A stretch of 64,000 nucleotides of DNA from Marinobacter sp. (GCA_040119125.1 JBEDTR010000005.1:93266-157265), one strand, 5' to 3'. Positions 39,225-57,868 are shown, counted from the stretch's first letter. A program made the numbers and translations. Notes: a model not told the origin generated them from the sequence alone.

Positions 39225-39973
39225 TCGGCGGCGGCGCGCAGGCCCTCCCCTGCGATCCGGCCATCGGCCAGACGCACCACCCGGTCGCATCGCGCGGCCA
39301 GCGCGGGTGCATGCGTGACCAAAACCAGCGTCGCGCCGTGGCGATCACGCAGGTCAAACAGCATGTCCATGATCGCCTCGCCCGTGGCAGTGTCGAGATT
39401 GCCGGTCGGCTCATCGGCCAGCAGGATCTGCGGACGCGGCGCGGCGGCACGGGCCAGTGCGACGCGCTGCTGTTCACCGCCCGACATCTGCCGCGGATAA
39501 TGATTGACGCGCGCGCCCAGACCCACGGCCCGCAGTTCCGCCTCCGCGCGGTCAAACGCGTCGTCATGCCCGGCCAATTCCAGCGGTGTGGCGACATTTT
39601 CCAGCGCGGTCATGGTCGGGATCAGGTGGAAAGACTGAAACACGATGCCCATATGATGGCGGCGGAACCGGGCCAGCGCATCCTCGTTCATTCCCGACAG
39701 GTCATGGCCGAGGGCGGTGATCCGACCGCCGGTTGCGCGCTCCAGCCCGCCCATCACCATGAGGAGAGAACTCTTGCCCGACCCCGATGGCCCGATCAGC
39801 CCCAGCGTTTCGCCACGCGTCACCGACAGATCAATGCCGCGCAGGATCTCCACCGGGCCGGCATTGCCGTCAAGCGTCAGCCGCAGGTCTGCCAGATCAA
39901 GCAGGGCATCAGCGGAGGTCGCACCCACAGCTGCGGGCCCGTCGGCATGGGGGTCGGCGGGTGTCACGGTCAT
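39221..39973 (-). CDS. ABC transporter ATP-binding protein (YbbA family)
   Basis: GPSGSGKSS, VFQSFHL, MSGGEQQRV and LADEPTGNLD. Confidence 0.92.
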   Translation of the reverse strand: MTVTPADPHADGPAAVGATSADALLDLADLRLTLDGNAGPVEILRGIDLSVTRGETLGLIGPSGSGKSSLLMVMGGLERATGGRITALGHDLSGMNEDALARFRRHHMGIVFQSFHLIPTMTALENVATPLELAGHDDAFDRAEAELRAVGLGARVNHYPRQMSGGEQQRVALARAAAPRPQILLADEPTGNLDTATGEAIMDMLFDLRDRHGATLVLVTHAPALAARCDRVVRLADGRIAGEGLRAAAE

Positions 39974-40679
39974 GGGCAGGCTCCGGGCGCGTCTAGGGTA
40001 TCTACCGCAATATGGCCTTGCCGCAGCGCGGCGCAAGGTAGCCGTCACGCTGATCGCGAGCCTGTCATCCCTGACCGCTGCACCGGCGATGGCGCAAACC
40101 GTGCTGGCGGCGCTGGGCGACAGTCTGACCCAAGGCTACGGGTTACCGCAGGGCGACGGTTTTGTGCCGCAGTTGCAGGCATGGCTGACAGACCGTGGGC
40201 ATGACGTGCGCATCGTCAATGCGGGCGTATCGGGCGACACAACGCAGGGCGGGCTCAGCCGCGCCGCGTGGACCCTGACGCCAGAGGTCGAGGGCATGAT
40301 CGTGGCGCTCGGCGGCAATGACCTGCTGCGCGGCCTGCCGCCCGAGACCAGCCGCGCCAATCTGGACGGTATCCTGACCGCCGCGGATGAGGCCGAGGTG
40401 CCGGTGCTGCTGGTGGGCATGATCGCGCCGGGCAATTACGGCGCAGCGTTCAAGCAATCTTTTGACGCGATGTATCCTGAACTGGCCGAGGCGCATGGCG
40501 CGCTGCTGCACCCGGATTTTTTGGGCGCGCTGACCGGGATCGAGGACCGCACCGGGGCAATCCGCGACTATATGCAGGGGGATGGCATCCACCCCAACGC
40601 CGACGGTGTGGCGCTGGTGGTGGAGGATATCGGGCCTTCGGTCGAGGCGCTGCTGGAGCGCATCGACCAAGGGCAGTGA
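39972..40679 (+). CDS. tesA: Arylesterase / acyl-CoA thioesterase I (SGNH/GDSL, TesA-like)
   Basis: GDSLT, NAGVSGDTT, LGGND and DGIHPN blocks; signal peptide ending AMA; divergent from ybbA. The start codon is uncertain. Confidence 0.82.
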   Translation: MGRLRARLGYLPQYGLAAARRKVAVTLIASLSSLTAAPAMAQTVLAALGDSLTQGYGLPQGDGFVPQLQAWLTDRGHDVRIVNAGVSGDTTQGGLSRAAWTLTPEVEGMIVALGGNDLLRGLPPETSRANLDGILTAADEAEVPVLLVGMIAPGNYGAAFKQSFDAMYPELAEAHGALLHPDFLGALTGIEDRTGAIRDYMQGDGIHPNADGVALVVEDIGPSVEALLERIDQGQ

Positions 40680-40683
40680 TGGC

Positions 40684-41481
40684 TTAGGCGAGCGCTGGCT
40701 GCGTCGGTTTGAGCGCGCTGATATCGCGGGCTTCGACTTCGCGCAGCAGTTCGATGAAACCGCGCACCTGATGGGCGCAGGTGGCGCGGCCTTTCTCGGC
40801 CGTGGCCAGCGACGCATCGCCCACCGTGCCCGCATCGCTCAGATCCGATGAGATCCAGCCATGCGAGATTGGCCCCACCGGCGAAATCGACGCGCCCTCG
40901 GCGGCGGAGCGGAAATTCTCGGCGCGGGTCATATCCACGCAATACGGCTGAAACGCCAGCATCAACGAGGTCTCCACATCGCCGCCATGGATGCCGTAGG
41001 CGCGTTCATGATCGGTGTAGAGCCCCTCGGGCTGGCCGAAATTGCCCCATTGGCATTTCACCGCGAACATCCCCGCCCGCACCCGCAATTCGCGGCTGAG
41101 GATCGAGATCAGGTCGAGATTGCCGCCATGGCTGTTGGCGATGACGATCTTACGAATGCCAGCCCGCGCGACCGACAGCCCGATCTCCTGCCATGCCTGA
41201 AGCGCGACGGGCGCGGACAGGGTGAGCGTGCCAGCGGCGTGGATATGTTCATTCGATTTGCCCACGGCCATTGTCGGCAGGATGCGGATATCCAGATCTT
41301 CGGGACAGGTGCGGCGCAGCTCATCCAGCATGCCGCCCGCGATCATCGTATCGGTGCCCACGGGCAGATGCGGCCCGTGTTGTTCGATGGCCGCGGTGGG
41401 CAGGATGGCGATGGTCTTCATCGGGTCGATATCGCGATATTCGGTGGCGCGATATTCGGCCCAGTCGAAACGGCGTGTCAT
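40684..41481 (-). CDS. Creatininase-family amidohydrolase
   Basis: EQHGPHLPVGTD, SNEH, NSHGGN and HGGDVETS. Confidence 0.92.
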   Translation of the reverse strand: MTRRFDWAEYRATEYRDIDPMKTIAILPTAAIEQHGPHLPVGTDTMIAGGMLDELRRTCPEDLDIRILPTMAVGKSNEHIHAAGTLTLSAPVALQAWQEIGLSVARAGIRKIVIANSHGGNLDLISILSRELRVRAGMFAVKCQWGNFGQPEGLYTDHERAYGIHGGDVETSLMLAFQPYCVDMTRAENFRSAAEGASISPVGPISHGWISSDLSDAGTVGDASLATAEKGRATCAHQVRGFIELLREVEARDISALKPTQPALA

Positions 41482-42431
41482 GAAACCTCCGGTGGGGTGT
41501 AAGTGGCGTCGAGCCGGGAGCGCAGGTAATCGGCCCCCGTGACGGCGGGATAACGGGGATCGCCGGTGCCGGGCAGCGCTGAGATGACGCTGTCGGGGTT
41601 GGGATCGAGGAAGAACGCGACCGACTGACGCTTATTGCGCGGCGGCGCAACGCGATGGGGCGAAGACGCGTAGATGTCATTGGACCAGCGCATCAGACAA
41701 TCGCCAATATTGACGACGAATGTATCGGCCATATGGGGCACGTCGATCCATGTGTCGCTGCCGCGCGGGCGGACCTGCAACCCCGGCTCACCATCGGTCA
41801 GCAGCAGCGTCACCGCGCCGTAATCCGTATGCGCCCCGGCGCCGATTTCACCGGCAGAGCCGCTGGCAGGCGGATAGGACAGCAGCCGCAGCGTGGCCAT
41901 GGGGGCGGTGAAATGCGGGGTGAAATATTCCTCCGCCAGCCCCAGATCGCGGGCAAAGGCGCGATGCAGCGCCACGCCCAGATCCCATGCGGCGTCGTAA
42001 TAGGCCGAAAGCGTCGCGCGGAACTGCGGCATCACGGCGTCCTGCGGCCAGAGGTTCACGCCGCGAAACGGCTCACCGGCCAGCACGCGCGGATCATCGG
42101 CAGGCAGATCAAGACCGATATTGAACGCCTCCTTGCGGTCCTGCACGCCGCTGGTGTCATCGAGCGCCTCAGACCCCATATGCGCCCAGCCCCGGTTATG
42201 CGGGTTGGTGTAGATCGACAGGGGCTTTTTCATACTTTCCGGCTGGGCAAAGAAATCGCTGGCCTGCGCAAACACCTGTTTGATCAGGTTGCGATCGATG
42301 CCATGCGCTTTCAGCAGGAAAAACCCCGCCCCGCGACAGGCCGCGCCCAGATCGGCGGCGAAGCCATCGGGATCATCCCCCGAAGCGAAACGTTGCCAGT
42401 CAAGAACGGGAATATCGATCGCATCGGTCAT
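41478..42431 (-). CDS. 2OG-Fe(II) dioxygenase, isopenicillin N synthase family
   Basis: IPVLD, GFF...HGI, HTDYG, VNIGD, HRV and RQS motifs. Confidence 0.92.
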   Translation of the reverse strand: MTDAIDIPVLDWQRFASGDDPDGFAADLGAACRGAGFFLLKAHGIDRNLIKQVFAQASDFFAQPESMKKPLSIYTNPHNRGWAHMGSEALDDTSGVQDRKEAFNIGLDLPADDPRVLAGEPFRGVNLWPQDAVMPQFRATLSAYYDAAWDLGVALHRAFARDLGLAEEYFTPHFTAPMATLRLLSYPPASGSAGEIGAGAHTDYGAVTLLLTDGEPGLQVRPRGSDTWIDVPHMADTFVVNIGDCLMRWSNDIYASSPHRVAPPRNKRQSVAFFLDPNPDSVISALPGTGDPRYPAVTGADYLRSRLDATYTPPEVS

Positions 42432-43102
42432 GTCGGGCGCTCCTCGCTGTGAATCGTTTCGCTGCGGGCCGCGGGGTTCTCTGTCCGGCTCCCGGCGCGG
42501 CGGGCGGGGGCAAGGAACCGATCCATTTTGGCCTCCACCCGCGACAGGTGGCGTGCGCGACTGGCATCGGTAGAACTGTCCATCAGGTAGTGCATCGCAA
42601 AGGATTTGCGCAACGGCTTGGCACAGATCAGCCCGATGCCGCGAAACAGCGTGCGCTTGCCCGGTGCCCCGATCAGCGCGGTCAGCCAGCGGCTGGCCCC
42701 GCCGGTCGTATAGACCGCAAGATTGCGAATATGGGTCAGGCCGGGGCGGATCGTGGCGTGATCGCTATCGGGCATGAGAAACGCCACATCCGGTAGTAAA
42801 ACCCGTTCCAGCCAGCCTTTCAGCATCGCGGGCTGGCCATACCACCAGGTCGGATAGACAAAGATCAGCGTATCGCACCATTGGACCTTGGCGACCTCCT
42901 CCGCGACGGGGAGGCGATTGGCGGGCGCGTCGAGATAGCCGCGATGCTCCGCCTCCGACAGCGTGGGGTCGAACCCCATCGCATAGAGGTCCGAGATCTG
43001 CCATTCGACACCCGCCGCATTGAGCCGGGCCAGAACCCGGTCGCGCACGGCGGCGGTGAAACTATCCTCGCGCGGGTGGCAATAGACGACAAGCGCGCGC
43101 AT
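42428..43102 (-). CDS. NAD(P)H-dependent flavodoxin-fold oxidoreductase (Flavodoxin_2), copy 2
   Basis: VVYCHP...SFT, DLY and YPTWWYGQPAMLKGWLERV. Confidence 0.9.
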   Translation of the reverse strand: MRALVVYCHPREDSFTAAVRDRVLARLNAAGVEWQISDLYAMGFDPTLSEAEHRGYLDAPANRLPVAEEVAKVQWCDTLIFVYPTWWYGQPAMLKGWLERVLLPDVAFLMPDSDHATIRPGLTHIRNLAVYTTGGASRWLTALIGAPGKRTLFRGIGLICAKPLRKSFAMHYLMDSSTDASRARHLSRVEAKMDRFLAPARRAGSRTENPAARSETIHSEERPT

Positions 43103-43103
43103 G

Positions 43104-43685
43104 TCAGAGAGCCTCCATCTCGCGGCCAACCCGGTCGAGAAACGCAGTGCGGCGCGGCTCGGTCGCGCGGTTCATGTCGTAAAGCGCAAGGTAGCGCATC
43201 CGGTCGGGCCGGGTCGCGTAGCGCACCGCGCGGGTGACGCATTTACGAGGCGGATCGCCTGCACCGATTGCCCGCAACCGGGTGCCCCCATAGGTGGTCA
43301 CTGCCGCCAGCCGGGTGATGTTGGGCAGGTTTGGGCGCACCTTGCCATCGACCAGCTTGAAGGACACGCCGGGCAGGAACACCCGGTCGAGGAAGCCCTT
43401 CAGGATCGCGGGATAGCCGAAATTCCAGACAGGAAAGACCAGCACCAGCGCCTGCGCCGCGCGCAGCCGTTCGACGTAATCCCGCACCGGCTCGATATTG
43501 GCGGGGTAGTCATGGTATCCGCGCCGTTCGGTTTCGGTCAGGACCGGCGAAAACCCTTCGGCATTCAGGTCGCAATCATCCACGTCCCAGCCGCCACGGG
43601 CGAGGCTTTCGACCGTGCGCGCATGCAGCGAGGCCGAGAAGCTTTCAGGACAGGGATGTGCGAAAAGGACAAGCGCGCGTTTCAT
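43104..43685 (-). CDS. NAD(P)H-dependent flavodoxin-fold oxidoreductase (Flavodoxin_2), copy 1
   Basis: LFAHP...SFS and FPVWNFGYPAILKGFLDRV. Confidence 0.9.
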   Translation of the reverse strand: MKRALVLFAHPCPESFSASLHARTVESLARGGWDVDDCDLNAEGFSPVLTETERRGYHDYPANIEPVRDYVERLRAAQALVLVFPVWNFGYPAILKGFLDRVFLPGVSFKLVDGKVRPNLPNITRLAAVTTYGGTRLRAIGAGDPPRKCVTRAVRYATRPDRMRYLALYDMNRATEPRRTAFLDRVGREMEAL

Positions 43686-43716
43686 ATCGCAGCCTCGATG
43701 CGGGCCGGGAGCAATG

Positions 43717-43752
43717 CCGGTTTTCCGCTGGAAAACCGGGCCTCCAGCGGAA
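43717..43752. repeat. Overlapping, mutually exclusive 10-bp hairpins in an intra-operon spacer
   Basis: CCGGTTTTCC(43717)/GGAAAACCGG(43730) and TTCCGCTGGA(43723)/TCCAGCGGAA(43743). Confidence 0.75.
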
Positions 43753-43780
43753 GTATTTCAGATAAGACGAAGCGCATGGA

Positions 43781-45181
43781 TTACTCCGCCGCTTGCAGGC
43801 CGGGATAGGCATACATGCTGGAATAGTCGTAATCGGGATCGTCCCAAGTGATCATCTTGCCCGGATTGAGCAGACCTTTGGGATCGGCCTCGCGCTTGAA
43901 GTCGAGCTGGCGTTTGTCGGCGGACTGGCGCCCGCCTTCTTCCAGCGTATAGCGATGCGGGTTGAAGATGATGGCGCCCGCTTCTTCGTGGAGGCGGACA
44001 ATTTCATCCAGCCGCTCTTCGGTAGTGAAGCGCACCATGGACAGACCGGCGAAAATGGTGCGGCCACTCTCGCGCATGACTTCGAGATGCTGCATCACCT
44101 CGGGCGAGAAATCGGCGCGCATCTTCTGCACCAGCGCGATGTGATCGGGATAGGCGTAGCGGACCTGTAGATAGGTGATCGACGGATCGACCCGCAGGGC
44201 GCGCAGGGTGGTGTGGTTCCAGCCATATTCAAAGACCGGACCCGGCGTGCGCTCCCAATCGCTGGCATCCGAGCGATAGATCAGACGCCCCGCCTCATGC
44301 CGCCCGAGGAAGGTCAAAAACCCCTCCATGCTTTGCGGCGCGATCATCAGCCCGACGAGCGTGGTGCCTTCCTCGACATGCGGCTGCACGCGCTGGAAAT
44401 AGCTATGCGCGATGGGGGCCTCATAGACCGAGCAGAGCTTCTTCAGGATGCCGTCCTGATTGCCGATGCCATTGGCGAATTCCAGCGCCGCGTCGAAATC
44501 GTCGAAGGCCACGAAAATGTCGGTCCAGTCATAGGCCGGGGCCAGCGGCATTTCCAATTCGGTGATGATGCCGTTGGTGCCATAGGCGTGGCTCACGCGG
44601 TGCAGTTCCTCGCCGCGGAATTCCAGCACGCGGGGCTCTTCTTCCATCGTCACCACGCGCAGGCGGATGATGTTGCCCAGATCGCGCAGCGCGCCCCATG
44701 TGATCGATCCGATCCCGCCCGAACCACCGGCGACGAAGCCGCCGACCGTGGCCGTGGCCCAGGTGGAGGAGAACATGCGCAGCTCCTGCCCGCTATGCTC
44801 CTGACAGGCGGCGTCGAGATCTTTCAGCAGGCAGCCCGGCTCGACAATGACACGGCCGGGGTGAATTTCCTTCACTGCCGCCATGTGACGCATATGCATG
44901 ACGCAGCCGCCGGCGAGCGGCATGGCCTGACCGTAATTGCCGGTGCCCGCGCCGCGGGTGGTGACCGGCACGTCATGGGCGTAGCAGGTGCGCAGGATTT
45001 CGATCACCTCGGCTTCGGTGCGGGGCGAGACAACGAAATCGGCCTCGACATGATCGAGCCGGGACTTCAGCACCGGCGAATACCAGAAGAAATCCCGGCT
45101 CTTGGCGCGGATTGCCCGGTCCGAGGTTTCGATATCGAGGTGGCTCAGCGCCTCTTTGGCGGCGGCGACATTAGGGGTCAT
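43781..45181 (-). CDS. FAD-binding oxidoreductase (VAO/PCMH family)
   Basis: SRDFFWYSP, RGAGTGNYGQ, ATVGGFVAGG, HAYGTNG and DPKGLLNPGK; ATGA coupling. Confidence 0.9.
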   Translation of the reverse strand: MTPNVAAAKEALSHLDIETSDRAIRAKSRDFFWYSPVLKSRLDHVEADFVVSPRTEAEVIEILRTCYAHDVPVTTRGAGTGNYGQAMPLAGGCVMHMRHMAAVKEIHPGRVIVEPGCLLKDLDAACQEHSGQELRMFSSTWATATVGGFVAGGSGGIGSITWGALRDLGNIIRLRVVTMEEEPRVLEFRGEELHRVSHAYGTNGIITELEMPLAPAYDWTDIFVAFDDFDAALEFANGIGNQDGILKKLCSVYEAPIAHSYFQRVQPHVEEGTTLVGLMIAPQSMEGFLTFLGRHEAGRLIYRSDASDWERTPGPVFEYGWNHTTLRALRVDPSITYLQVRYAYPDHIALVQKMRADFSPEVMQHLEVMRESGRTIFAGLSMVRFTTEERLDEIVRLHEEAGAIIFNPHRYTLEEGGRQSADKRQLDFKREADPKGLLNPGKMITWDDPDYDYSSMYAYPGLQAAE

Positions 45182-46467
45182 GCGGTCCTCATCAGGTGGT
45201 CGAGCTCCGCGTAATCGGGGAGCGTGCGGTCGATCTGCCGGCCCTGCCGGATCACGATGCGGTCGGATTGGGGCCGGGCGAAAAGCTCGGTCCAGCTGCG
45301 CGCGCGGCAGATCACCAGATCGGCGGGCGCACCGGGGGTCAGGTCTGGCGCATCGAAGCCGCAAACCTGCGCGGGGGTGGTGGTGAAGGCGTGGGTCCAG
45401 TCGTGCCGCCCATGGTCGAGATGGGCGATCCGGGTGGCCTCGCGCATGACCTCGATCATGTCGAGATCGCCATAGGCATAGAACGGATCGCGGGTGTTAT
45501 CCGACGCAAAGCTGACGGAAATGCCGCGTTCGACCATCTCATGAACCAGCGTGACGCCGCGCCTACGCGGGGTGCGCCCGGCATGGCGGTCCTGCAAGAA
45601 CAGATTGCACATCGGCAGGCTGACCACATTGATCCCCGCCCGCGCCACCAGATCGAGCGTGTCGAACGCGCGGGCCTCCTCCTGCACCGACAGCGAACAG
45701 CAATGGCCCACGGTGATCGGCGCGGTGAAGCCGGTGTCGATCGCCGCCTCGGCAATCAGGCGCAGGGTCTCGACGCTGGGGTCCATCGTCTCATCGACAT
45801 GGAAATCCGCATCGAGCCCGCGCGCCCCGGCGGCGGCAAAGAAATCCCGCAGCCGGGTGGGCAGGTCGGGCATCGGATAGGTGACCGAGCCCAGCACGCC
45901 GTCATGTTCGGCCACCAGATCGGCCAGCGCGTTGAAGTCCGGGCCTTGGTCGATGCGGTCGGCGCCAATGAGCGCGCTGGCCTGAAGCTCGACCCGGCCC
46001 GCCCATTTCGCGCGCAGCTCCGACATGACCGGGAAACTGATCGCGGCCTGCGGGGCAAGGCTGTCGATATGGGTGCGCAGAGCACGGGTGCCATGCGCAT
46101 AGGCGCAGCGTAGGGCGAAATCGGCGCGGGCGCGGACATCCTCGGCGGACCAATTGGCGATGCGGTCGGCGCCAACAGTGGCCAGCGCCCCGTCAAATGT
46201 GCCGTTGGGGTTCGGCGCCCGGTCCCAGATATGGCCCTTGTCGATATGGGTATGCATGTCGGTGAAGGCCGGAAGCACCATTGCGCCGCGCATGTCGATT
46301 TGCGGCAGCTCCGGGTCCGGCGCGGCCAGCATGCCGTTCCTGATCGTCAGGTCGATGGAGGTGAGCGCACCTTCGGCCCCGGCCAGACAGGCCGGAACGG
46401 TAAGGTTGCGCAGGGTGGCGTTTATAGTGTCGTCATGGCCGCTGGGCAGAACGCGGAATTCCATCAA
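45178..46467 (-). CDS. Cytosine-deaminase-like metal-dependent amidohydrolase (possible pterin deaminase)
   Basis: DMHTHIDKG, RTHID, DFHVDE, GHCCSL and ASDNTRDPFY motifs. Confidence 0.85.
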   Translation of the reverse strand: MMEFRVLPSGHDDTINATLRNLTVPACLAGAEGALTSIDLTIRNGMLAAPDPELPQIDMRGAMVLPAFTDMHTHIDKGHIWDRAPNPNGTFDGALATVGADRIANWSAEDVRARADFALRCAYAHGTRALRTHIDSLAPQAAISFPVMSELRAKWAGRVELQASALIGADRIDQGPDFNALADLVAEHDGVLGSVTYPMPDLPTRLRDFFAAAGARGLDADFHVDETMDPSVETLRLIAEAAIDTGFTAPITVGHCCSLSVQEEARAFDTLDLVARAGINVVSLPMCNLFLQDRHAGRTPRRRGVTLVHEMVERGISVSFASDNTRDPFYAYGDLDMIEVMREATRIAHLDHGRHDWTHAFTTTPAQVCGFDAPDLTPGAPADLVICRARSWTELFARPQSDRIVIRQGRQIDRTLPDYAELDHLMRTA

Positions 46468-47345
46468 CCCTCTCTGTTAAGGGCACTTTCGTGCCATTTG
46501 CGCAGCATCAGGTGGGTGAACACCGACAGGATCGTGAAGATCACCACCCCCATTGCCGCAATCATTGCCAGCGCGGCAAACATCCGCGCGATATTAAGCC
46601 GGTAGCCAGCCTCTTGGATACGCGAGGCAAGGCCCGCGCCCACGCCCCCGGTCCCGGCGACCAGTTCGGCCACCACGGCCCCGATCAGCGACAGACCACC
46701 GGCGATCTTCAGCCCGCCCAAGAAATAGGGCAGCGCCGAGGGGATCTGAAGCAGGGTCAGCCGCTGCCAGCGCGTCGCGCCATAGATACGGAACAGATCG
46801 CGCAGGTTGTGATCGACGGAGTTCAGCCCCAGCGTGGTCGAGGAGAGCACCGGAAAAAACGCCACGATCCATGCGCAAAGCAGCATACCGGCGGTCTTGC
46901 TTTCGACATAGATAAAGATCAGCGGCGCGATCGAGACCACGGGCGTGACCTGCAAGATCACCGCGTATGGGTAGAAGGACAGCTCCATCATCCGCGATTG
47001 GTTGAACAGGATCGCCAGCCCGGCCCCGCCCGCGACGGCGAGGCACAGCGCCAGAACGGTGGTGCGCGCGGTGAGCGTCGCGGCCTCGAACAGGATGCCC
47101 CAGTCATTGACGAGGCTGTCCCAGACACGACCAGGGCCCGGCAGGATGTAATGCGGAATCTCGTTCCACACGACAATGCGGTCCCACAGCCACAAGGTCA
47201 GCGTCAGCATGATGATGGGCAGCGCGTATTTAGCGAACTTGTCGATGCGGCGGCGCCGCGCGCGACGCATTTCGTCCAGATCGAGGGGCGGCAGGTCGGG
47301 CACATGTTCGGCCACGGTGCCTGCGGGGGTCTGATAGGTGGTCAT
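46464..47345 (-). CDS. ABC transporter permease (NitT/TauT family)
   Basis: YILPGP, QVTPVVSIAPL, FFP, IPSALPY and GAVVAE. Confidence 0.92.
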   Translation of the reverse strand: MTTYQTPAGTVAEHVPDLPPLDLDEMRRARRRRIDKFAKYALPIIMLTLTLWLWDRIVVWNEIPHYILPGPGRVWDSLVNDWGILFEAATLTARTTVLALCLAVAGGAGLAILFNQSRMMELSFYPYAVILQVTPVVSIAPLIFIYVESKTAGMLLCAWIVAFFPVLSSTTLGLNSVDHNLRDLFRIYGATRWQRLTLLQIPSALPYFLGGLKIAGGLSLIGAVVAELVAGTGGVGAGLASRIQEAGYRLNIARMFAALAMIAAMGVVIFTILSVFTHLMLRKWHESALNREG

Positions 47346-48133
47346 GCGGCCTCCATTGCCGAATGCAGCGCTTCGGACGTTGCCCGGCAATGCGCGGCAT
47401 ATTCTGGCGAGGTGCGGAACGCCTCGCCACGCGGATAGGGTTCGTCGACTTGCAATTCGCGGATCACCCGGCCCGGACGGGCGGCCATCACCACGATGCG
47501 GTCGGACAGGAACACGCTTTCAAAGACCGAATGCGTGACGAAAATGACGGTGCAGCCGATCTTGTCGCGCAGGGCCAGCAGATCGGTGTTGAGCTTGTGA
47601 CGGGTGATTTCATCCAGCGCGGCGAAAGGCTCATCCATCAAGATCAGGCGGGGCCGGGTCACCATGGCGCGGGCAATCGAGACACGCATCTTCATGCCTC
47701 CCGACAATTCGCGCGGATAGGCATTGGCGAACTTCTCCAGACCGACCAATGACAGCGCCTCGCGGATCTCATCCTTCACGGCGTGATAGCTTTGACCACG
47801 CAGGCGGAAGGGCAGCCACACATTATGCGCGACCGTGGCCCAAGGCATCAGCGTGGGTTCCTGAAACACCACCCCCAGATCACCCCGCGCCTGCCCGCCG
47901 GCCCATTCGATGCGTCCCGCCGTGGGCGACATCAGCCCCGCGATCAGCCGCAAGGCGGTGGATTTGCCGCAGCCCGACGGCCCGAGTAGCGAGATGAAAT
48001 CCCCCTCGTTCACATCAAGATGCATGCCGCGCAGGGCGACGGTCTCGCCGCCGAAAACCTTGTCGACCGATTGCATCGTCAAGACTGGGGCACGGGCGCC
48101 AATAGGGGCGATTGTGCGGAGGGCTGAGGTCAT
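47342..48133 (-). CDS. ABC transporter ATP-binding protein (NitT/TauT family)
   Basis: GPSGCGKST, LSGGMKMR, MDEPFAALD and FVTHSV. Confidence 0.93.
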   Translation of the reverse strand: MTSALRTIAPIGARAPVLTMQSVDKVFGGETVALRGMHLDVNEGDFISLLGPSGCGKSTALRLIAGLMSPTAGRIEWAGGQARGDLGVVFQEPTLMPWATVAHNVWLPFRLRGQSYHAVKDEIREALSLVGLEKFANAYPRELSGGMKMRVSIARAMVTRPRLILMDEPFAALDEITRHKLNTDLLALRDKIGCTVIFVTHSVFESVFLSDRIVVMAARPGRVIRELQVDEPYPRGEAFRTSPEYAAHCRATSEALHSAMEAA

Positions 48134-48310
48134 TGCAGTTCCGGTAGCTGGTCGATGTTTCTAAGCGGGGCCCCGGCGCGAATCGTCGCGCGGCGCAGGG
48201 CCGGTATCTGTCCCAATGGGGTGCTTTGGCAGACTGACTGCCAGTAGGGATGGCAGCAGGCAGAAGACGGGGCCGCCAAGCCCCGCCATCCGCCCGCCGC
48301 TGAAGCAGGT

Positions 48311-49324
48311 TTACTGCATCAGGTCCATGCCGACGCCTTTGCCCACAAATTCCGTCGTATAGGCGGCTTTGTAGTCCAGACCGTCTTCGAGCACGCCCGC
48401 ATCGACCATCTTCTGGTAGAACTCGCCCACCAGCTCATCGGTGATGACGCCCACGCCCATGGTTTCCGCATCGCCGGAGGTCACGATGCCATTGGCGGTC
48501 AGCTGTTCGACTGCAAAGTCGAGCTTCGACTGGGTCATGTCCGGGTTCGCTTCGAGGATCAGAGCGTTGGCTTCGGAATTGTCGCCACTGAGGTAGTTAT
48601 ACCAACCCTTGATCGAGCCATCGACAAAGCACTGCACGATCTCGGGCTTGTTCGCGATCGTGTCGGCCATGGTTTCGATCGTGGTGGCATAGGTCGAATA
48701 GCCGGCATCCGCGATCAGGAAGATGTCGGGCTTAAAGCCTGCTTCGGTTTCGATGACATAAGGCTCCGAGCTGAGATACCCCTGCATGCCCACGCCTTCA
48801 TCGGCGAGGAACGGCGCGGGGTTGAAGGTATAGGGATCACGCTGTTCGGCGGTGAAACCGTATTCCTTGATCATCCACTGATAATAGGACTGATAGCCGT
48901 TATCCCCGATGAGCAGGGTCAGATCCTTCAGATCTTCGAAGCTTTCAGCCACGCCGGGATGGGCGATGATGACCTGCGGGTGCTTTTGGAACATCGCAGC
49001 GACGGAAACGACAGGGATGCCCTCTTTCACGGCGGAAAACGCCTGAAGCAGGTCACCGCCCATGTGGAAGTCGATTTTGCCGGCCAGCATCAGCGCGCGG
49101 TTGTTCACCTGCGGCCCGCCGGGCACGATCGTCACGTCGAGACCGCATTCGGCATAGGTGCCATCGGCGACAGACTGGTAGAAGCCGCCATGCTCGGCCT
49201 GCGCGACCCAGTTCGTGCCGTAGGATACAGGCGTCAATTCCTGCGCCCGCGCGGGCGTGGTGAGGGCAGTTGCAGTGCCGACGGCCAGCAGAATGGCGCC
49301 GAAGAAGGTGGACCCCTTGGTCAT
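48311..49324 (-). CDS. ABC transporter substrate-binding protein (NMT1/ThiY-like)
   Basis: Signal peptide ending ARA-QE, TNWVAQAEHGGFYQ and PGGPQVN. SD GGAG upstream of ATG 49324. Confidence 0.9.
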   Translation of the reverse strand: MTKGSTFFGAILLAVGTATALTTPARAQELTPVSYGTNWVAQAEHGGFYQSVADGTYAECGLDVTIVPGGPQVNNRALMLAGKIDFHMGGDLLQAFSAVKEGIPVVSVAAMFQKHPQVIIAHPGVAESFEDLKDLTLLIGDNGYQSYYQWMIKEYGFTAEQRDPYTFNPAPFLADEGVGMQGYLSSEPYVIETEAGFKPDIFLIADAGYSTYATTIETMADTIANKPEIVQCFVDGSIKGWYNYLSGDNSEANALILEANPDMTQSKLDFAVEQLTANGIVTSGDAETMGVGVITDELVGEFYQKMVDAGVLEDGLDYKAAYTTEFVGKGVGMDLMQ

Positions 49325-49352
49325 GGTAGTCTCCGCGTAATGTGAGTTTCCC

Positions 49353-49369
49353 TGCCCAATGTGTAGGCA
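49353..49369. promoter_or_regulatory. TGCC-N9-GGCA palindrome (NtrC/Fis-like site) in the divergent promoter region
   Basis: TGCCCAATGTGTAGGCA, with a weaker half-match GAGCATATTTTTGGGCA at 49438-49454. Confidence 0.45.
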
Positions 49370-49553
49370 ACGCCTCAGAAGGTGGCACGAGCGGCCCGCG
49401 TCCATTGTTTGCTCACATCTAAATTTGCGCTTTTAGAGAGCATATTTTTGGGCAATTGTTTAAATCATGTGCAATCTAGAAGAAATCTGCGCAGGATCGA
49501 TCTGATCGCCTCGCCAGATTGACCTCCCCCCTCACGCGGATAATCTGCACCCA

Positions 49554-49955
49554 ATGACTTCTCAAATGCTATCTCCCGATACGATTCGACGCCCCTTTGC
49601 GCGCTATGCGCATGGCGTTGAAATTCCTGTAAACGCGCGCTTGGTCATGACGTCTGGCCAATTGGGCATTGGACCGGACGAGTTCATTCCCGACGGCGCA
49701 GCCGAACAAGCGGCACTGTGTTTCGCCAATATCGACGCGATTCTCGCCGAGGCGCAGATGACCGCCACGGATGTCGTGCGCATCAATGCCTTCGTCACCG
49801 ACCGCGCCCATATGGCCAGCTACATGGCCGCGCGGGATCGCTGGCTGTCGGAAATCGCCGAGGATGCCCTGCCCGCGTCGACGCTGGTGATCGTCAACGG
49901 CTTTACCCGGCCCGAATTTCTGGTCGAGGTGGAAGTGACCGCTGCCAAGGTCTGA
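49554..49955 (+). CDS. RidA/YjgF family protein
   Basis: Y.HG, SGQLG, R..W...PASTL and LVEVEVTA. Confidence 0.9.
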   Translation: MTSQMLSPDTIRRPFARYAHGVEIPVNARLVMTSGQLGIGPDEFIPDGAAEQAALCFANIDAILAEAQMTATDVVRINAFVTDRAHMASYMAARDRWLSEIAEDALPASTLVIVNGFTRPEFLVEVEVTAAKV

Positions 49956-50028: not shown

Positions 50029-51075
50029 ATGCCAGTTACCCTGACCTCCATCCGCGACCTCGCGCAGCTGCCTTTCGATGAGGTGATCGACGTCCGTGCG
50101 CCGTCGGAATACGCCGAGGACCACATGCCCGGCGCCATCAGCCTGCCGGTGCTGTCGGATGATGAGCGGGCCCGCGTCGGCACGATCTATGTGCAGCAGG
50201 ACGCGTTTCTGGCGCGCAAGATCGGCGCGGCGCTTGTCGCCCGTAATGCCGCCACCCATCTGGAAGGCCCGCTTGCCGACCGCGATGGCGGGTGGAAGCC
50301 GTTGCTTTACTGTTGGCGCGGCGGCCAGCGTTCTGGCTCGTTTGCCTCGATCCTCGCGCAGATAGGCTGGCGCGTGGATATCGTGGCGGGTGGGTATAAA
50401 AGTTACCGCACCCTTGTCGTCGACATGCTGCACCGAAACCCCCTGCCGCAGCGGATCATCCGGCTGGACGGGCTGACCGGCAGCGGCAAGACCGAGGTGC
50501 TGGCCCGCATCAGCGCGCGCGGCGGGACCGTGATCGATCTTGAAGGCCTCGCGCGGCATCGCGGATCGGCATTCGGTGCCATGCCCGGCGGTCAGCCCGC
50601 GCAAAAAGGGTTCGAGACCGCATTGGCCCGAGAGCTTGCCGCGCTGCCCGAAGACGCCACCATTCTGGTCGAGGCCGAGGCCGCACGCATCGGCGAGATC
50701 CGCCTGCCGCCGTCTCTCTGGACCGCGATGCGCAATTCGCCGCGGATCATGCTGGATGCCGACCTGCCCAATCGCGCAAGGTTCCTTGCGCGCACCTATG
50801 CGGGCGACGCGACGGCGCAGCAGCAGGTCTCCGCATCCTTACCCCTGTTGGTGCCATTGCAAGGCCGGGCGCAAGTTTGCGAATGGCAGGCGCTGGCCGA
50901 GGCCAAGGATTGGGAAGCGCTGGCTGGCGAATTGATGTCGCGCCATTACGATCCGCGCTATTTGCGCGCGCAGGAGCGCTACACCCCGCCCGCCGCGCAT
51001 GTGCCGATCACCCCCGAAGGCGACGGTTTCGACCGCGCCGCCGACGGTGTCATGGCGGCGCTCGCCCGGCTGTGA
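50029..51075 (+). CDS. mnmH: tRNA 2-selenouridine synthase
   Basis: Rhodanese domain (IDVRAPSEY, CWRGGQRS) plus P-loop GLTGSGKT, IDLEGLA.HRGS.FG and HYDPRY. Confidence 0.94.
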   Translation: MPVTLTSIRDLAQLPFDEVIDVRAPSEYAEDHMPGAISLPVLSDDERARVGTIYVQQDAFLARKIGAALVARNAATHLEGPLADRDGGWKPLLYCWRGGQRSGSFASILAQIGWRVDIVAGGYKSYRTLVVDMLHRNPLPQRIIRLDGLTGSGKTEVLARISARGGTVIDLEGLARHRGSAFGAMPGGQPAQKGFETALARELAALPEDATILVEAEAARIGEIRLPPSLWTAMRNSPRIMLDADLPNRARFLARTYAGDATAQQQVSASLPLLVPLQGRAQVCEWQALAEAKDWEALAGELMSRHYDPRYLRAQERYTPPAAHVPITPEGDGFDRAADGVMAALARL

Positions 51076-51095: not shown

Positions 51096-53318
51096 TCAGA
51101 CGAAGGTGATCCGCGGCGCGCCTTCGACCAGCCGCCCGATACGCACCGGCGCCACGCCCGCGCGCCGCAGCCGGTCGAACCGCGCCTCCAGCCCGACCTC
51201 CGGAACGGCCGCCAATAGGCCGCCCGCCGTCTGCGGATCGAACAGCAGATCGTAGCGCGCCCCCTGCCCCGCCGCGACGATCCCATCGAGCGCCGCGCGG
51301 TTGGCGGGCCAGATGGAACTGCGGATCCCCGCCTCTGCCACCGCCTCTGCCCCATCATGGAGCGGCAGCGCGGGCAGCGACAGCTCCGCCCCCAGCCCGG
51401 AGGCGCGACAGATATTCGCCAGATGCCCGGCCAGCCCAAAGCCGGTGACATCGGTCATCGCATGGGCATCGCGCAATTCCGCCGCCGCCGCGCCGTAGGG
51501 CGTGGCGAGCAGGTCGAGCAGCGCGGCCAGCTGCGGACCCCGCGTGCGGCCTGCGCCCTGCCCCCGCATTGCACCTGCCAGCAGCGCTCCGGAGCCAATC
51601 GGCCGGGTCAGGATCAATGCGTCGCCCGGTTGCCCGCCCGCCAATGTGACGGGCTCCCGGTCAAGCGTGCCGGTGACGGTAAAGCCCAGCACCAGCTCCG
51701 ATCCGACCGAACTGTGACCGCCGACCAGCGCCGCGCCTTCGGCGCTTAGGATGGCGGCGGCGGCCTGCGTGATCTCGGCCAGCATGTCGGCCTGCATGGG
51801 CTCTGCCATCTCCGGCAGGATCACGCTGGCCAATGCCGATTGCGGTGCTGCGCCCATCGCCCAAACATCGCCCAAGGCGTGACAGATCGTGATCCGCGCC
51901 ATTTCGGCGGCGTCCGAGGTCACGGCGCGCAAATGATCGGTGCTGATGATCTGGCGCGTGCCATCGGCCCCCCGAAGCATCGCGGCATCATCGCCCGGCA
52001 GCTGAATGATGTCGGACCGCGTGACAGCGGGCACATGACGCAGCGCCTCTTTCAACGCGCCCGGCCCCACTTTTGCACCGCAGCCGCCACATAGCGGCAC
52101 GTCCGTCAGCCGCTCCGCCAACCCGGCTGCGGCCCCGATTGGTGCGCGCGGGGTCGGCATCTGCGGCAGGTCTGACAGCATCGCCATGAAACGCCGGTCG
52201 ATACGGTCCTTCCACTGCCAGACCCACCCCCCGGCAAGCACCGGCCAGCGCCGATCGGCAACCGCCGCGCGATCCCCCATCGAGATAAGCTTCAGGTAGT
52301 GCTTTTGAGGGCGGTAGCGCCGCATGTCCTGCGGACGTTCCGCCAGCGTCGCACGCAGGTTGGCAAACAGCACCGGCGCTTGCCGCACCGCAAATACCCC
52401 GGCTTTCGGGCGGGGGGTCTGGATCATATGCGCACAGTCGCCAGCGGCAAAGACATGCGCGAACCCCGGTGCGCGCAAGGCCGGGTCAACCGCGATATAG
52501 CCATTTTCCAGCGTCAGCCCGGTGCCGGACAGCCAATCCTGCGCCTGAGCGCCCGCCGCGCCAACCGTAAGCGCCGCCGGGATCTCGCGCCCGGTTTCAA
52601 GCCGCAGATGGGTGGCGGTGACCTCGACTGCGCGGGCGCCCTCGATGATTTCGACCCCCAGATCCTGCGCGGCGCGGCGCAGATGGTCGGTCCCGGCATC
52701 CGACACACCTTTCAGCGCGGTGTTGGCCTCAATCACACGCACTTGGCCTTGGCGATTCTCCGCATGCAGCCGCCGGGCCATCGCAAGCGCCAGCTCCACC
52801 CCCGCGACCCCGCCGCCCAGCACGGCGACATCGCCAGACCTATTGCCTGCGTCGCCGTCCGTATCGGACCGCAGGAACCGCTCCCAACGATCCGCAAAAG
52901 CGCCCAGAGGCTTGGCCGGCGCGCCGAACCGGGCAAAGCCGCGCAGCCCGGGCAGATCCGACGTGACCCCAATGTCGAACGATACAACGTCAAACCGAAG
53001 CAACCGCCCATCGTTCAGGCGCAAACGGCGCGCCACCGGATCGCACATATCGGCGCGGCCCCGGATCATCCGCGCGCCAGCCGCCTGCGCCAGCGCCATC
53101 AGGTCAATATCGAGCGCCGCGCGCGGATAGTGCCCCGCGACCCACCCCGGCAGCATGCCCGAATAGGCCGCGACCGGGCCGGGATTGACCAGCGTCACCC
53201 GCACACCGGGCTGCGGTGCCATCGCCCAACGGCGCAACACCAACGCATGAGTATGCCCGCCGCCCACCAGCAGCAGATCGCGGGTGGCTGGGAAATCGCG
53301 CTCGGGTCCGGTCTGCAT
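51096..53318 (-). CDS. selD: Selenide, water dikinase with an N-terminal pyridine nucleotide-disulfide oxidoreductase domain
   Basis: N-terminal LVGGGH, YSGMLPG, GGGVAGVE and FAAGDC; C-terminal CGGCGAK, DDAA, TDVTGFGLAGHL and DPQTAGGLL. SD AGGAG upstream of ATG 53318. Confidence 0.92.
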   Translation of the reverse strand: MQTGPERDFPATRDLLLVGGGHTHALVLRRWAMAPQPGVRVTLVNPGPVAAYSGMLPGWVAGHYPRAALDIDLMALAQAAGARMIRGRADMCDPVARRLRLNDGRLLRFDVVSFDIGVTSDLPGLRGFARFGAPAKPLGAFADRWERFLRSDTDGDAGNRSGDVAVLGGGVAGVELALAMARRLHAENRQGQVRVIEANTALKGVSDAGTDHLRRAAQDLGVEIIEGARAVEVTATHLRLETGREIPAALTVGAAGAQAQDWLSGTGLTLENGYIAVDPALRAPGFAHVFAAGDCAHMIQTPRPKAGVFAVRQAPVLFANLRATLAERPQDMRRYRPQKHYLKLISMGDRAAVADRRWPVLAGGWVWQWKDRIDRRFMAMLSDLPQMPTPRAPIGAAAGLAERLTDVPLCGGCGAKVGPGALKEALRHVPAVTRSDIIQLPGDDAAMLRGADGTRQIISTDHLRAVTSDAAEMARITICHALGDVWAMGAAPQSALASVILPEMAEPMQADMLAEITQAAAAILSAEGAALVGGHSSVGSELVLGFTVTGTLDREPVTLAGGQPGDALILTRPIGSGALLAGAMRGQGAGRTRGPQLAALLDLLATPYGAAAAELRDAHAMTDVTGFGLAGHLANICRASGLGAELSLPALPLHDGAEAVAEAGIRSSIWPANRAALDGIVAAGQGARYDLLFDPQTAGGLLAAVPEVGLEARFDRLRRAGVAPVRIGRLVEGAPRITFV

Positions 53319-53449
53319 GTTGGCTCCTTTTTGCTGTCTTGCCCGAGCAGAACCGCCCCGTAAAGCTGCGTGCGGCACTGTCCCGGAACTGCACAGGATA
53401 TTCCCACGGACCATCACGAAAGGCGGAACGATTTTTCGCCGCAAAACCG

Positions 53450-53479
53450 CTTGACGCCCCGCGCCCCATCCCCTACCTA
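53450..53479 (+). promoter_or_regulatory. Housekeeping promoter for tRNA-Met
   Basis: CTTGAC-N17-CTACCT, about 13 nt upstream of the tRNA. Confidence 0.55.
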
Positions 53480-53491
53480 GCGCCACGGTTT

Positions 53492-56900: not shown

Positions 56901-57868
56901 GACAGCCGGACGCCGTCTTCGGCGATGTCGGTAACCGTCAGATCACCGGTGATCTTGCCCCCCAACATACCGTTGCCCGTCAGCGTCACCGTCGCACCGG
57001 AAACAGCGGTATCGGTGCCGGCATAGAGCGCGCCCAAGGTGACATTCGCATCGCTTGTCAGGCTGGACGTGCCCGATATGTTCAGCACACCGATATCGGC
57101 CCCACCCGTCACGTCGAGCGTGCCAGCGCCGGTCTGTTGCACGGTGCCCGTGACCGTCACATCCCCGCCCACGGTAAGTGTGCCGGAATTGGTCAGGGTG
57201 TTGCCGTCCGTCTCATCGGTGAGATCTTCGGTCACGGTGGTTGTGCCGGTATTGCCGAACGACCCCGAGGCATCGTCGATCAGAAGCGATCCGGTTTCCA
57301 GCGTGCCTGCATTGTTGACAGCCGCAGCACCAATCGTTGTCGCGCCCGCAACGGTGACATCCCCCGCACCGGTCACGTCAAACGTGCCGTCGGCGACCGA
57401 GAGCGAACCGGCGGTAACGGTGCCGCCGGTGTCAAAATCGCCCTGCGTCTCAAGGTTATTCGTAACCGCAAAAACACCATTGCTGCCAATGGCGAGATCC
57501 GTCTTGATGACCGCACTGCCAGCGTTCAGCGTTTCACTATCCTCGACCGAATGCGTGGCGCTGGAATTCAGCACAAGCGCGCCGGTCGAAGTGAGGGTGA
57601 CATTCGGGTCGAGCACGAATGCGCCGCTCGTCGTCGCGGAGCCGGCATTCTCCACGGTGATCGTGTCAAAGGTGCCGTCGGAGGAAAATACGGTCGGGTT
57701 CGGGGTCGTGGTGTCGTCGATGACCAGATCCTGTGACCAGCCGCCATGTCCGCTCATCCCGTAGACCAGCGCGGTGACTGCCGTGGTGGACAAAATGACG
57801 CGCCGCAGGCGTGTCCGCCCGGCGCGCTGTGACATGGACGCACCGGTGCCATCGTGAACTGCTGTCAT
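53912..57868 (-). CDS. Autotransporter (type Va) adhesin-like outer membrane protein
   Basis: RR..LSTTA signal region, about 950-aa T/G/D/S/V/N-rich beta-helix-like passenger, and an approx. 300-aa barrel (AWVRGTGG...) ending in a terminal Phe (ARLQF). Start could be 57886, 57868 or 57835. Confidence 0.82.
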   Translation of the reverse strand: MTAVHDGTGASMSQRAGRTRLRRVILSTTAVTALVYGMSGHGGWSQDLVIDDTTTPNPTVFSSDGTFDTITVENAGSATTSGAFVLDPNVTLTSTGALVLNSSATHSVEDSETLNAGSAVIKTDLAIGSNGVFAVTNNLETQGDFDTGGTVTAGSLSVADGTFDVTGAGDVTVAGATTIGAAAVNNAGTLETGSLLIDDASGSFGNTGTTTVTEDLTDETDGNTLTNSGTLTVGGDVTVTGTVQQTGAGTLDVTGGADIGVLNISGTSSLTSDANVTLGALYAGTDTAVSGATVTLTGNGMLGGKITGDLTVTDIAEDGVRLSVGTGGMIEDDLTISATPTAATDGVVFTNTSIVGGNVTVGSDSADSSNLSFVNSGTVSGDIISYGTVRTEGGVSGDITANDGRLEFAPGATVGGAVTVSEPAVLYLGTYGNVGGGAVQITGDLLANGAISSTGDNSMSVGGTFTSFDTIEADGGVTTISATTINLRDGTIRSEVNGGTLSFAADTINYGIDTTIPDAELAYDLGVIDGATVTIDSAIDGAGYDLAVSDGTLDVNADFTGLAVTTVSSDGVINLAAETELEYTTLTNDGTIRMGAGSTLTGTGNTYTNNSVTLVGDGGTIQDAGAIINNGTLTFLGNATLDSDTDTSGGEIITNTGTLALTTTANAAPVVSALDDVLSTGSSAEITLAQDTTFNVSGMLTNTSGATVAIGTDATMSATDTVVNTDGASITVASGGSLSATNGITNEDTATLDVNGGTVSGTLDNSSTVTFAGTMTGDVNNTGSFTFDGDSMMSGDFDNFAAGTFTIDGDSTVDGALNNEGLLRNGGSGMTLTVTDGVTNTGTIRVLDMFTIDTASVANAGGRIDLGTDDAADDVLMLTGTVAGGTLAFDIDLGDSTGATDQIILSSLTGNVQLEFDTLASGAILDDPLQVVAGNAVSATLTSSGLPARSGPLSYQVTQSSDGVFVDSVIDPGAAAVSGNLALVQSLIGTIVNRPSSPFVSGLAYESEDTCGSGAWVRGTGGRAEATSHTDNGQARLPATVDADFYGFVTGYDFGCFNSAAGEWDVAAGGLLGINSGSTEQKVFELGVSGSDIVLTNTQVSTTRSDFDQRYVGGYIAAARGAFTGDVQLRFENTDYVFDNESLGLYDEETSSNGTTLSASLSYSHALSDTLTLVPTAGFGITRTSTDDLVFRDNSGSEIGRIDFDDHTTKIGFVGSTLAHTTIAPSGTEAYNSFVTATYYEDFSDDMTSKYRIGNDSQDLTTDPLGGFGELSVGLSYIKILDGEVGAAKQFNASVRADARFSDDVEAFSITAQARLQF

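Follow-up and report, generated by a model that had tools for sequence, protein, structure and literature searches.

A conserved gene cluster for import and catabolism in Rhodobacterales with a probable role in pteridine scavenging

The subject of this study is a gene cluster in a window of 64,000 nucleotides (nt) from Marinobacter sp. (GCA_040119125.1 JBEDTR010000005.1:93266-157265). An original prediction, made from the sequence alone, had described positions 40684-49955 as a ten-gene system for the uptake and breakdown of an N-heterocycle, possibly a pterin. All ten genes were found at this place, nine of them co-directional on the minus strand and one divergent, and each of them has a strong match to a protein family (Table 1). 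The order of transcription is binding protein, ATPase and permease of an ATP-binding cassette (ABC) importer, deaminase, flavin adenine dinucleotide (FAD) enzyme, the two Flavodoxin_2 proteins a and b (Fld2a and Fld2b), 2-oxoglutarate (2OG) dioxygenase and creatininase-family hydrolase, and the divergent gene encodes a Rid-family protein. The genes had been predicted to be joined mostly by overlaps of 4 nt, which was about right. At four of the eight junctions (ATPase/permease, deaminase/FAD enzyme, Fld2b/2OG dioxygenase and 2OG dioxygenase/creatininase) the stop and start codons overlap as ATGA, and two more junctions abut, with TGATG between permease and deaminase and a gap of 1 nt between Fld2a and Fld2b. 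There are only two real spacers, one of 177 nt 3′ of the binding-protein gene and one of 95 nt 3′ of the FAD gene. Several start codons were corrected, i.e., that of the binding protein to the ATG at 49324, which is downstream of GGAGA and gives the signal peptide MTKGS...ARAQ, that of the permease to the ATG at 47345, which overlaps the ATPase stop codon, that of the FAD enzyme to the ATG at 45181, and that of Fld2b to the ATG at 43102. The 177-nt spacer contains a hairpin (fold of 48170-48310, -76.5 kcal/mol, z -3.0), which was equalled by only 1 of 200 shuffles and might serve the protection of an mRNA end or partial termination. A candidate hairpin in the 95-nt spacer was no better than shuffles (z -1.6) and was rejected. 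Simple consensus scans revealed neither a sigma-70 promoter nor an intrinsic terminator at either operon end, for which reason a Rid gene promoter noticed by eye was discarded, and a scan of the promoter region did not yield a T-tract terminator.

Table 1. Features of the cluster, ordered as transcribed, followed by the divergent gene and the promoter element; coordinates count from the first nucleotide of the window.
Feature	Coordinates	Strand	Evidence
NMT1/THI5-like periplasmic solute-binding protein, Sec signal peptide	48311..49324	-	PF09084 E 1e-18
Strong stem-loop in the spacer 3′ of the binding-protein gene	48253..48300	-	Fold energy and shuffles
ABC transporter ATPase	47342..48133	-	PF00005 (ABC_tran) E 5e-33
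Single ABC permease, NitT/TauT-type	46464..47345	-	PF00528 (BPD_transp_1) E 2e-20
PRK07583-family amidohydrolase, CodA-like, candidate pterin deaminase	45178..46467	-	Amidohydro_3/1; NF005759 604.6 bits
VAO/PCMH-fold FAD enzyme, 6V42 orthologue	43781..45181	-	FAD_binding_4 4e-26; phmmer E 7e-180 to 6V42
Flavodoxin_2 a (Fld2a), NQO/MdaB-like NAD(P)H-dependent reductase	43104..43685	-	PF02525 E 4e-26
Flavodoxin_2 reductase b (Fld2b)	42428..43102	-	PF02525 E 6e-30
2OG/Fe(II) dioxygenase, accessory	41478..42431	-	PF14226 (DIOX_N) 4e-29 and PF03171 (2OG-FeII_Oxy) 1e-22
Creatininase-family metal hydrolase, not creatininase proper	40684..41481	-	PF02633 E 7e-66
Divergent Rid/YjgF-family protein	49554..49955	+	PF01042 (Ribonuc_L-PSP) E 2e-22
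NtrC-type dyad TGC-N11-GCA in the divergent promoter region	49426..49442	.	Sequence reading and comparative counts

The conservation of the cluster was analyzed with sets of related genomes. Among 61 relatives, 8 genomes of the family carried orthologues with at least 58% identity, always together with the complete block. The host is a Roseovarius-like marine bacterium; the closest relative was a Roseovarius strain, the deaminase of which is 93% identical. A scan of species-representative genomes yielded more than 580 relatives, and the 80 best loci were compared, which all belong to the Rhodobacterales where they are classified below the phylum. The order binding protein, ATPase, permease, deaminase, FAD enzyme, Fld2a, Fld2b, (2OG dioxygenase), creatininase, with a divergent Rid gene, was kept in nearly all 80 loci. 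For 62 full Rhodobacterales loci with enough flank the presence of each gene was counted. The deaminase and Fld2b were present in all 62, the ATPase, the permease and the FAD enzyme in 61 each, and the binding protein in 60, followed by Fld2a (55), the creatininase-family hydrolase (54), Rid as divergent partner (50) and the 2OG dioxygenase (43). This gene order is kept far beyond chance. The original prediction had made its pathway depend on the co-conservation of the genes, and the persistence of the block across the Rhodobacterales loci supports a co-conserved unit for the import and catabolism of an N-heterocycle.

Neither a dedicated regulator nor conserved flanking genes were found in the 80 loci, and the commonest flanking family, which is unrelated, occurred in 10 of them. 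The cluster is present in roughly a quarter of the sampled genera of the family and in most sampled Rhizobiaceae-like genomes. Its G+C content is 0.59–0.66, compared with 0.68–0.72 in both flanks, its genomic neighbours vary between genera, and related copies in Paroceanicella, Pseudooceanicola, Palleronia and Sulfitobacter are plasmid-borne. Together these features point to horizontal spread. A decaying copy of the whole cluster, with only partial matches for several genes, was seen in a relative of the same family (G014:C5:757600-774900). Recoding was considered for the three in-frame TGA codons of its deaminase gene and was rejected, because they align with Ala, Phe and Leu, which indicates a decayed gene.

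The deaminase passes the cut-off of 403 bits of NF005759 (PRK07583 ‘cytosine deaminase’). It stays far below the CodA model NF006685 (PRK09230), with 118 bits at a cut-off of 483, whereas the CodA of Escherichia coli reaches 895.7 bits. It shares the amidohydrolase fold and the ligands of a mononuclear metal site with E. coli CodA; the sequence identity is 26% with this enzyme, compared with 52% for the Rhizobium orthologues. The metal-binding and catalytic residues H72, H74, H223, E226, H255 and D323, which align with H61, H63, H214, E217, H246 and D313 of CodA, are invariant. In contrast, the cytosine-binding Gln156 of CodA is replaced by Gly in the window deaminase and by Pro, Gly or Ser in its relatives, and it is Gln in none of them. 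It had been noticed before that the enzyme has SDN where CodA has HDD, and the alignment with E. coli CodA bore this out, with Ser-Asp-Asn in place of His312-Asp313-Asp314. The position of Asp314 is Asn in 10 of 10 aligned alphaproteobacterial family members and Asp only in E. coli CodA. The lack of Gln156 and the low score with the CodA model both support the view that the enzyme is no CodA-type cytosine deaminase. As the catalytic residues are intact and Gln156 is lost, the enzyme is predicted to be an active amidine hydrolase with a pocket different from that of CodA. The UniRef name of one R. leguminosarum orthologue is ‘Pterin deaminase’; this orthologue belongs to clade A, one of at least three alphaproteobacterial clades of PRK07583, all of which pass the NF005759 cut-off. 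Clade A is linked to the FAD enzyme and includes the window deaminase, clade B occurs together with an NMT1-type ABC system, a 2OG dioxygenase and a LysR regulator, and clade C adjoins a three-subunit molybdenum hydroxylase.

The deaminases of clade B are 44–45% identical to that of the window. With the importer, the 2OG dioxygenase and LysR they form a compact module, found on plasmid pRL11 of R. johnstonii 3841 (locus L115, 8782-10134) and in relative G032 (locus L022), which is widespread on Rhizobium/Agrobacterium plasmids. In relative G053 (locus L020, G053:C41, 4670-9736) the clade-C deaminase, with 47–49% identity, is divergent from the molybdenum hydroxylase genes (FAD_binding_5, Fer2_2, MoCoBD) and adjoins an SBP_bac_8 ABC importer. 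This locus may be a CDA-like variant of the lumazine dehydrogenase cluster that was mentioned by Doi et al. (2025; PMC12391406).

The FAD enzyme matches the protein of the PDB entries 6V42 and 6V43 over its full length (open reading frame (ORF) residues 65-525 versus chain residues 4-465), with an identity of roughly 55–62%. A model derived from 25 orthologues was superimposed on 6V42 with a Z score of 43.6 and a root-mean-square deviation of 2.1 for 442 residues, while the next fold family, D-lactate dehydrogenases, reached a Z score of 28.6 at 19% identity. The title of the entry, which was released in 2020, is ‘Crystal structure of the flavin oxygenase with cofactor bound involved in folate catabolism’. 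6V42 is closer to Rhizobium, an orthologue of which scored 720 bits with it. The best match of a 75-residue stretch of 6V42 in the plasmid collection was 73%. Homologues of the FAD enzyme were found in 28 of 401 evenly sampled Pseudomonadota genomes. Wherever the identity was 51% or more (20 of 20 orthologues), the gene was located immediately 3′ of the deaminase gene and 5′ of a Flavodoxin_2 gene. This invariant triad indicates that the three genes form one functional unit, and the folate label of the depositors applies to this orthologous group. In two genomes of one genus (G080:C1:553025-559120 and G252:C1:2919893-2925845) two paralogous 6V42-type genes are located about 3–5 kb apart. One copy is found with the deaminase, and the other with a binding protein, a Flavodoxin_2 protein and a creatininase, without a deaminase.

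Related clusters of Rhizobiales are found on Rhizobium megaplasmids, e.g., R. leguminosarum pRle248e (GYN07_RS26280-26320), and on chromosomes of the R. rhizogenes group, where the clade-A genes are on a replicon of roughly 3.9 Mb. Two loci (L103 and L108) were fully examined. The clusters share eight orthologous genes with the window at 48–60% identity, namely those for the ATPase, the permease, the deaminase, the FAD enzyme, the Rid-family protein, the NMT1 binding protein (51–53%), the Flavodoxin_2 protein Fld2a (54–57%) and the creatininase-family hydrolase (51–55%), and the importer-deaminase-FAD-Flavodoxin_2 core has the same order. Unlike the window cluster, the two examined loci have a LysR regulator, a single Flavodoxin_2 gene, no 2OG dioxygenase and a divergent creatininase gene, and Rhizobium clusters have extra genes nearby (Flavin_Reduct, methyltransferase, EamA, or PaoABC/XdhC). 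The Flavin_Reduct gene is an addition in the clusters of the R. rhizogenes group, and the PaoABC/XdhC genes abut one Rhizobium cluster. The window cluster, in turn, has two Flavodoxin_2 genes, a 2OG gene and no regulator gene in a single nine-gene transcription unit. Fld2a and Fld2b are paralogues (about 38% identical), and the best solved relatives of Fld2a are NAD(P)H quinone reductases. Fld2b has no match in the two examined loci, although several Rhizobiaceae-like genomes in the phylum sample do have a second gene next in line that resembles Fld2b. The window cluster is a Rhodobacterales variant, with a second reductase, a 2OG dioxygenase and no LysR, of a partly characterized, unpublished pathway.

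The remaining three enzymes were compared with characterized families. The best solved relatives of the 2OG dioxygenase are the EFE-like 9OVH (1.5e-56) and the thymine dioxygenase 5C3P (3e-39). Its gene is missing in about 30% of the full loci and also in the two examined Rhizobium clusters, and therefore it should be accessory and not catalyze a core step. Characterized members of the creatininase family include creatininase, the formamide hydrolase ArfB and MftE. The hydrolase of the window falls under the cut-off of each of the respective equivalog models (MftE, TIGR03964, 105.5 of 172 bits; creatininase, TIGR04448, 80.6 of 235; ArfB, NF033501, 21.6 of 180) and matches the Pfam superfamily model only. 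The literature search did not yield a paper that joins creatininase with pterin or lumazine. The divergent protein had been called RidA. It does belong to the Rid family, but it is no canonical RidA, because it reached only 47.8 bits with the RidA model TIGR00004 at a cut-off of 106, and the catalytic Arg105 is replaced by Ser in it and in its cluster-linked orthologues. The protein has PAS instead of the PAR of RidA and RutC.

An NtrC-like box had also been proposed, and it gained support from the comparison of orthologous promoters. The dyad TGCGCTTTTAGAGAGCA (TGC-N11-GCA, with an A/T-rich center) is located between the divergent genes, with a distance of about 100 bp to either start codon, and the congener G001 shares it. 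TGC-N11-GCA was present in 26 of 59 orthologous intergenic regions, compared with 4.5 (maximum 11) in shuffles, and the other spacings from 7 to 15 occurred in only 3–13 regions, showing that the dyad is enriched and spacing-specific. When further conserved operator motifs were sought with exact k-mers, only words from coding sequences came up. TGC-N11-GCA has been described as an NtrC site (PMC10746234), and NtrC of Rhodobacterales acts with sigma-70. A sigma-54 promoter was considered and rejected, because TGGCAC-N5-TTGC is absent from the intergenic regions and no rpoN gene was found in the window's genome, which is 83% complete. The genome does contain ntrC-like genes, and together these observations fit the sigma-70-dependent NtrC of Rhodobacterales. 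Control by NtrC, and hence a role in nitrogen scavenging, is plausible from the promoter sequences.

Arad3529 of Agrobacterium radiobacter K84 is the only CDA-like pterin deaminase known to have been characterized, and it is, like the window deaminase, a CodA-like amidohydrolase. In 2013 Fan et al. reportedly observed that it deaminates many pterins and suggested it as the first enzyme of a pterin degradation pathway not yet described. According to Doi et al. (2025), deaminases of the CDA-like, Arad_3529-like kind replace the pterin deaminase of Cupriavidus in Rhizobiales and Rhodobacterales. A preprint gave the gene name of Arad3529 as codAch2 and placed it within PF07969 (PMC13081902). Because of the statement by Doi et al. 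and the close similarity of the adjacent FAD enzyme to 6V42, pterins appear to be the best-supported substrate class. Weaker hints of a tie to Arad3529 are the UniRef name of the clade-A orthologue from R. leguminosarum and the position of the clade-A cluster on the 3.9-Mb replicon of the R. rhizogenes group. Further support was seen in the molybdenum hydroxylase beside the clade-C deaminase and in PaoABC/XdhC by the Rhizobium cluster, which are enzymes typical of the hydroxylation of N-heteroaromatics. In Variovorax an L-PSP (Rid-family) gene is found downstream of pterin deaminase genes (You et al., 2022). We consider it probable, though clearly short of certain, that the operon is a self-contained unit for the scavenging of oxidized pteridines, presumably as a nitrogen source, via an undescribed flavin- and O2-dependent route. 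Candidate substrates would be pterin, 6-formyl- or 6-carboxypterin and other breakdown products of folate or pigments. The analysis itself shows gene content and coupling, conservation, family membership, the missing cytosine-binding residue and the close kinship with 6V42, while the substrate, the order and regiochemistry of the steps and the control by NtrC are inferred from these.

The following scheme is proposed. The NMT1-type ABC system would import the pteridine, and the PRK07583 deaminase would hydrolyze the 2-amino group, converting pterin to lumazine and ammonia, so that the pyrimidine half would become a uracil-like imide. The 6V42-type FAD ‘oxygenase’, for which the NAD(P)H-dependent Flavodoxin_2 proteins would supply the electrons, would then oxygenate or cleave a ring, and the creatininase-family hydrolase would open or deacylate the resulting cyclic amide, N-acyl group or formamide/oxalamide. 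A labile product would be handled by the Rid-family protein, and the 2OG dioxygenase would be an optional hydroxylase for a side chain or a ring. Which ring would be attacked, and in which order, is our conjecture. The Rut pathway of E. coli (RutA-G) consists of a flavin oxygenase with a flavin reductase, an amide hydrolase, a Rid protein and a transporter, is controlled by NtrC and serves nitrogen scavenging. The window cluster resembles it in logic only, with its set of oxygenase, reductases, hydrolase, Rid protein and transporter and the proposed control by NtrC. Family searches revealed no homologues of RutA (luciferase-like), RutB (isochorismatase) or RutD among the ten genes; the cluster has a VAO-fold oxygenase, a hydrolase of the creatininase family and a Rid protein without the arginine of RutC.

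The cluster had also been thought to belong to no described pathway, which held in part. The literature search yielded no paper that describes a pathway with this gene set. However, a different pathway for pterin and lumazine was published in 2025, and for parts of the system prior art exists with the enzymology of Arad3529 and the structures 6V42/6V43. The published pathway is that of Cupriavidus sp. LA-1, in which lumazine and 7-hydroxypterin are degraded to xanthine by a pterin deaminase, a molybdenum lumazine dehydrogenase (LuDH), an Amidohydro_2 isomerase (DHLI) and a decarboxylase of the UbiD type with prenylated flavin mononucleotide (prFMN; XCDC) (Doi et al., 2025). Cluster I of LA-1, which is inducible and has dedicated transporters, resembles the proposed system in that it starts with the deamination of pterin to lumazine. 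In contrast, the families of the molybdenum dehydrogenase, the Amidohydro_2 isomerase and the UbiD decarboxylase are all missing among the genes of the window cluster, and UbiD (PF01977) was found neither in the window's genome (83% complete) nor in five cluster-bearing relatives (G001, G005, G007, G016 and G017). Therefore, if the substrate is a pteridine, it should be degraded by a different route.

Several observations weigh against pteridine scavenging. The binding protein matches the Pfam NMT1 model, and a search of solved structures yielded no informative similarity to any ligand-defined protein; the match to ThiY (3IX1) was weak (E 0.008). No paper on 6V42/6V43 was found in the literature search, and the folate link rests on the PDB title. 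The imine removal that had been assigned to RidA is doubtful for the Rid-family protein, because it lacks the catalytic Arg105. The PRK05985-type amidohydrolases, which are present in Rhizobiaceae, are a possible home for Arad3529, and if it belonged there, the link to the deaminase of the window would be weaker. As a bridge to the Variovorax pterin deaminase the PRK05985-type enzymes were rejected; they are only 22–29% identical to the three PRK07583 clades and to CodA, and thus they are uninformative about the family of Arad3529. Last, the growth of Azospirillum on cytosine requires both a cytosine deaminase and a nearby NMT1-type three-gene ABC operon (RS31875-RS31885, RS31895), which keeps a pyrimidine substrate in play.

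It seems rather unlikely that the substrate is another N-heterocycle or cyclic amidine, e.g., a purine analogue (isoguanine, 8-oxoguanine), a triazine, or a marine osmolyte or alkaloid, and that the folate label holds for some orthologues only. The different partners of the three or more PRK07583 clades do suggest substrate diversification, AtzC triazine hydrolases are the second-best solved relatives of the deaminase, and the unconserved flanks and the lower G+C content are as expected for a mobile niche trait. However, the FAD enzyme and the deaminase of the window fall within the same orthologous and syntenic group as those of the Rhizobium clusters, where each gene is 52–58% identical, and family searches revealed no gene of a known purine, triazine or ectoine route in the cluster.

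We also regard as unlikely that the cluster is a pyrimidine system, which would import and deaminate cytosine or a substituted 4-aminopyrimidine (5-methyl- or 5-hydroxymethylcytosine, or the thiamine pyrimidines hydroxymethylpyrimidine (HMP) and formylaminopyrimidine (FAMP)) and would then oxidize it at the side chain or the ring; the 2OG enzyme would work in the manner of thymine 7-hydroxylase, and the deformylase would be the creatininase-family enzyme. The NCBI family name ‘cytosine deaminase’ and the best solved relatives of the deaminase, the cytosine and 5-methylcytosine-type deaminases 4R7W and 1K6W, agree with a pyrimidine, but Gln156 is missing in every member, Asp314 is Asn, and the score with the CodA model is low. 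The NMT1/THI5 family of the binding protein includes ThiY, yet the similarity to ThiY is marginal, and the cluster showed no TenA. Thymine dioxygenase is a solved relative of the 2OG enzyme, but with its patchy occurrence this enzyme cannot be assigned a core step. The Azospirillum system is a precedent for the joint requirement of deaminase and importer; against a pyrimidine stands the invariant partner of the window deaminase, a 6V42-type enzyme labelled with folate catabolism. A pathway of the creatinine/N-methylhydantoin type, with a creatinine deaminase and a creatininase-like ring hydrolase, is highly improbable, because in spite of the Pfam match of the hydrolase and the JGI label ‘cytosine/creatinine deaminase’ on some deaminase orthologues, the creatininase equivalog cut-off is missed by far, no creatinase, hydantoinase, carbamoylsarcosine amidase or sarcosine oxidase is found in the cluster, and the FAD oxygenase and the flavin reductases would have no role in either known creatinine route.

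Next to the cluster, 36687-40679 encodes an FtsX-type permease (867 aa), an ABC ATPase and a divergent GDSL esterase, a trio like ybbP/ybbA/tesA. The esterase gene is convergent with the creatininase gene and ends 4 nt from its stop codon, and no terminator was detected there. Next to the Rid gene follow a rhodanese-domain protein of 348 aa (50029-51075, plus strand) and a fusion protein of 796 aa with pyridine-nucleotide-disulphide oxidoreductase and AIR-synthase-like (SelD-type) domains (51096-53486, minus strand). Judged from their domains, they may be a selenium-utilization pair (SelU-like and fused SelD), and they are kept beside the cluster in the closest relatives only. An ORF of 1324 aa (53912-57886, minus strand) has no Pfam match at E 0.001.

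If the pteridine reading is correct, it is tempting to speculate further, albeit tentatively, that roseobacters and rhizobia share a second, O2- and flavin-dependent pathway for the pteridine ring, which would be mechanistically unrelated to the molybdenum/UbiD route. The VAO-fold oxygenase with its NQO-like reductases and the creatininase-fold hydrolase might do the job of RutA and RutB on deaminated pterins, and marine Rhodobacterales might use sigma-70-dependent NtrC to gain nitrogen from folate photoproducts or algal pterins. The pathway is amenable to direct testing in cultured roseobacters and rhizobia. All cells shed pterins and fragments of folate, and more are set free when sunlight breaks folate down, yet only one bacterial route that destroys the pteridine ring has been published (in 2025). 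A second route would fill a gap in the turnover of vitamin B9 and pigments in soil and sea. It would also give functions to several large families with generic names, i.e., the PRK07583 ‘cytosine deaminases’, the 6V42-type FAD enzymes, one creatininase subfamily and an Arg-less Rid subfamily. As the PRK07583 deaminases of these clusters are, by their residues and model scores, almost certainly not cytosine deaminases, their systematic misannotation would thereby be corrected.

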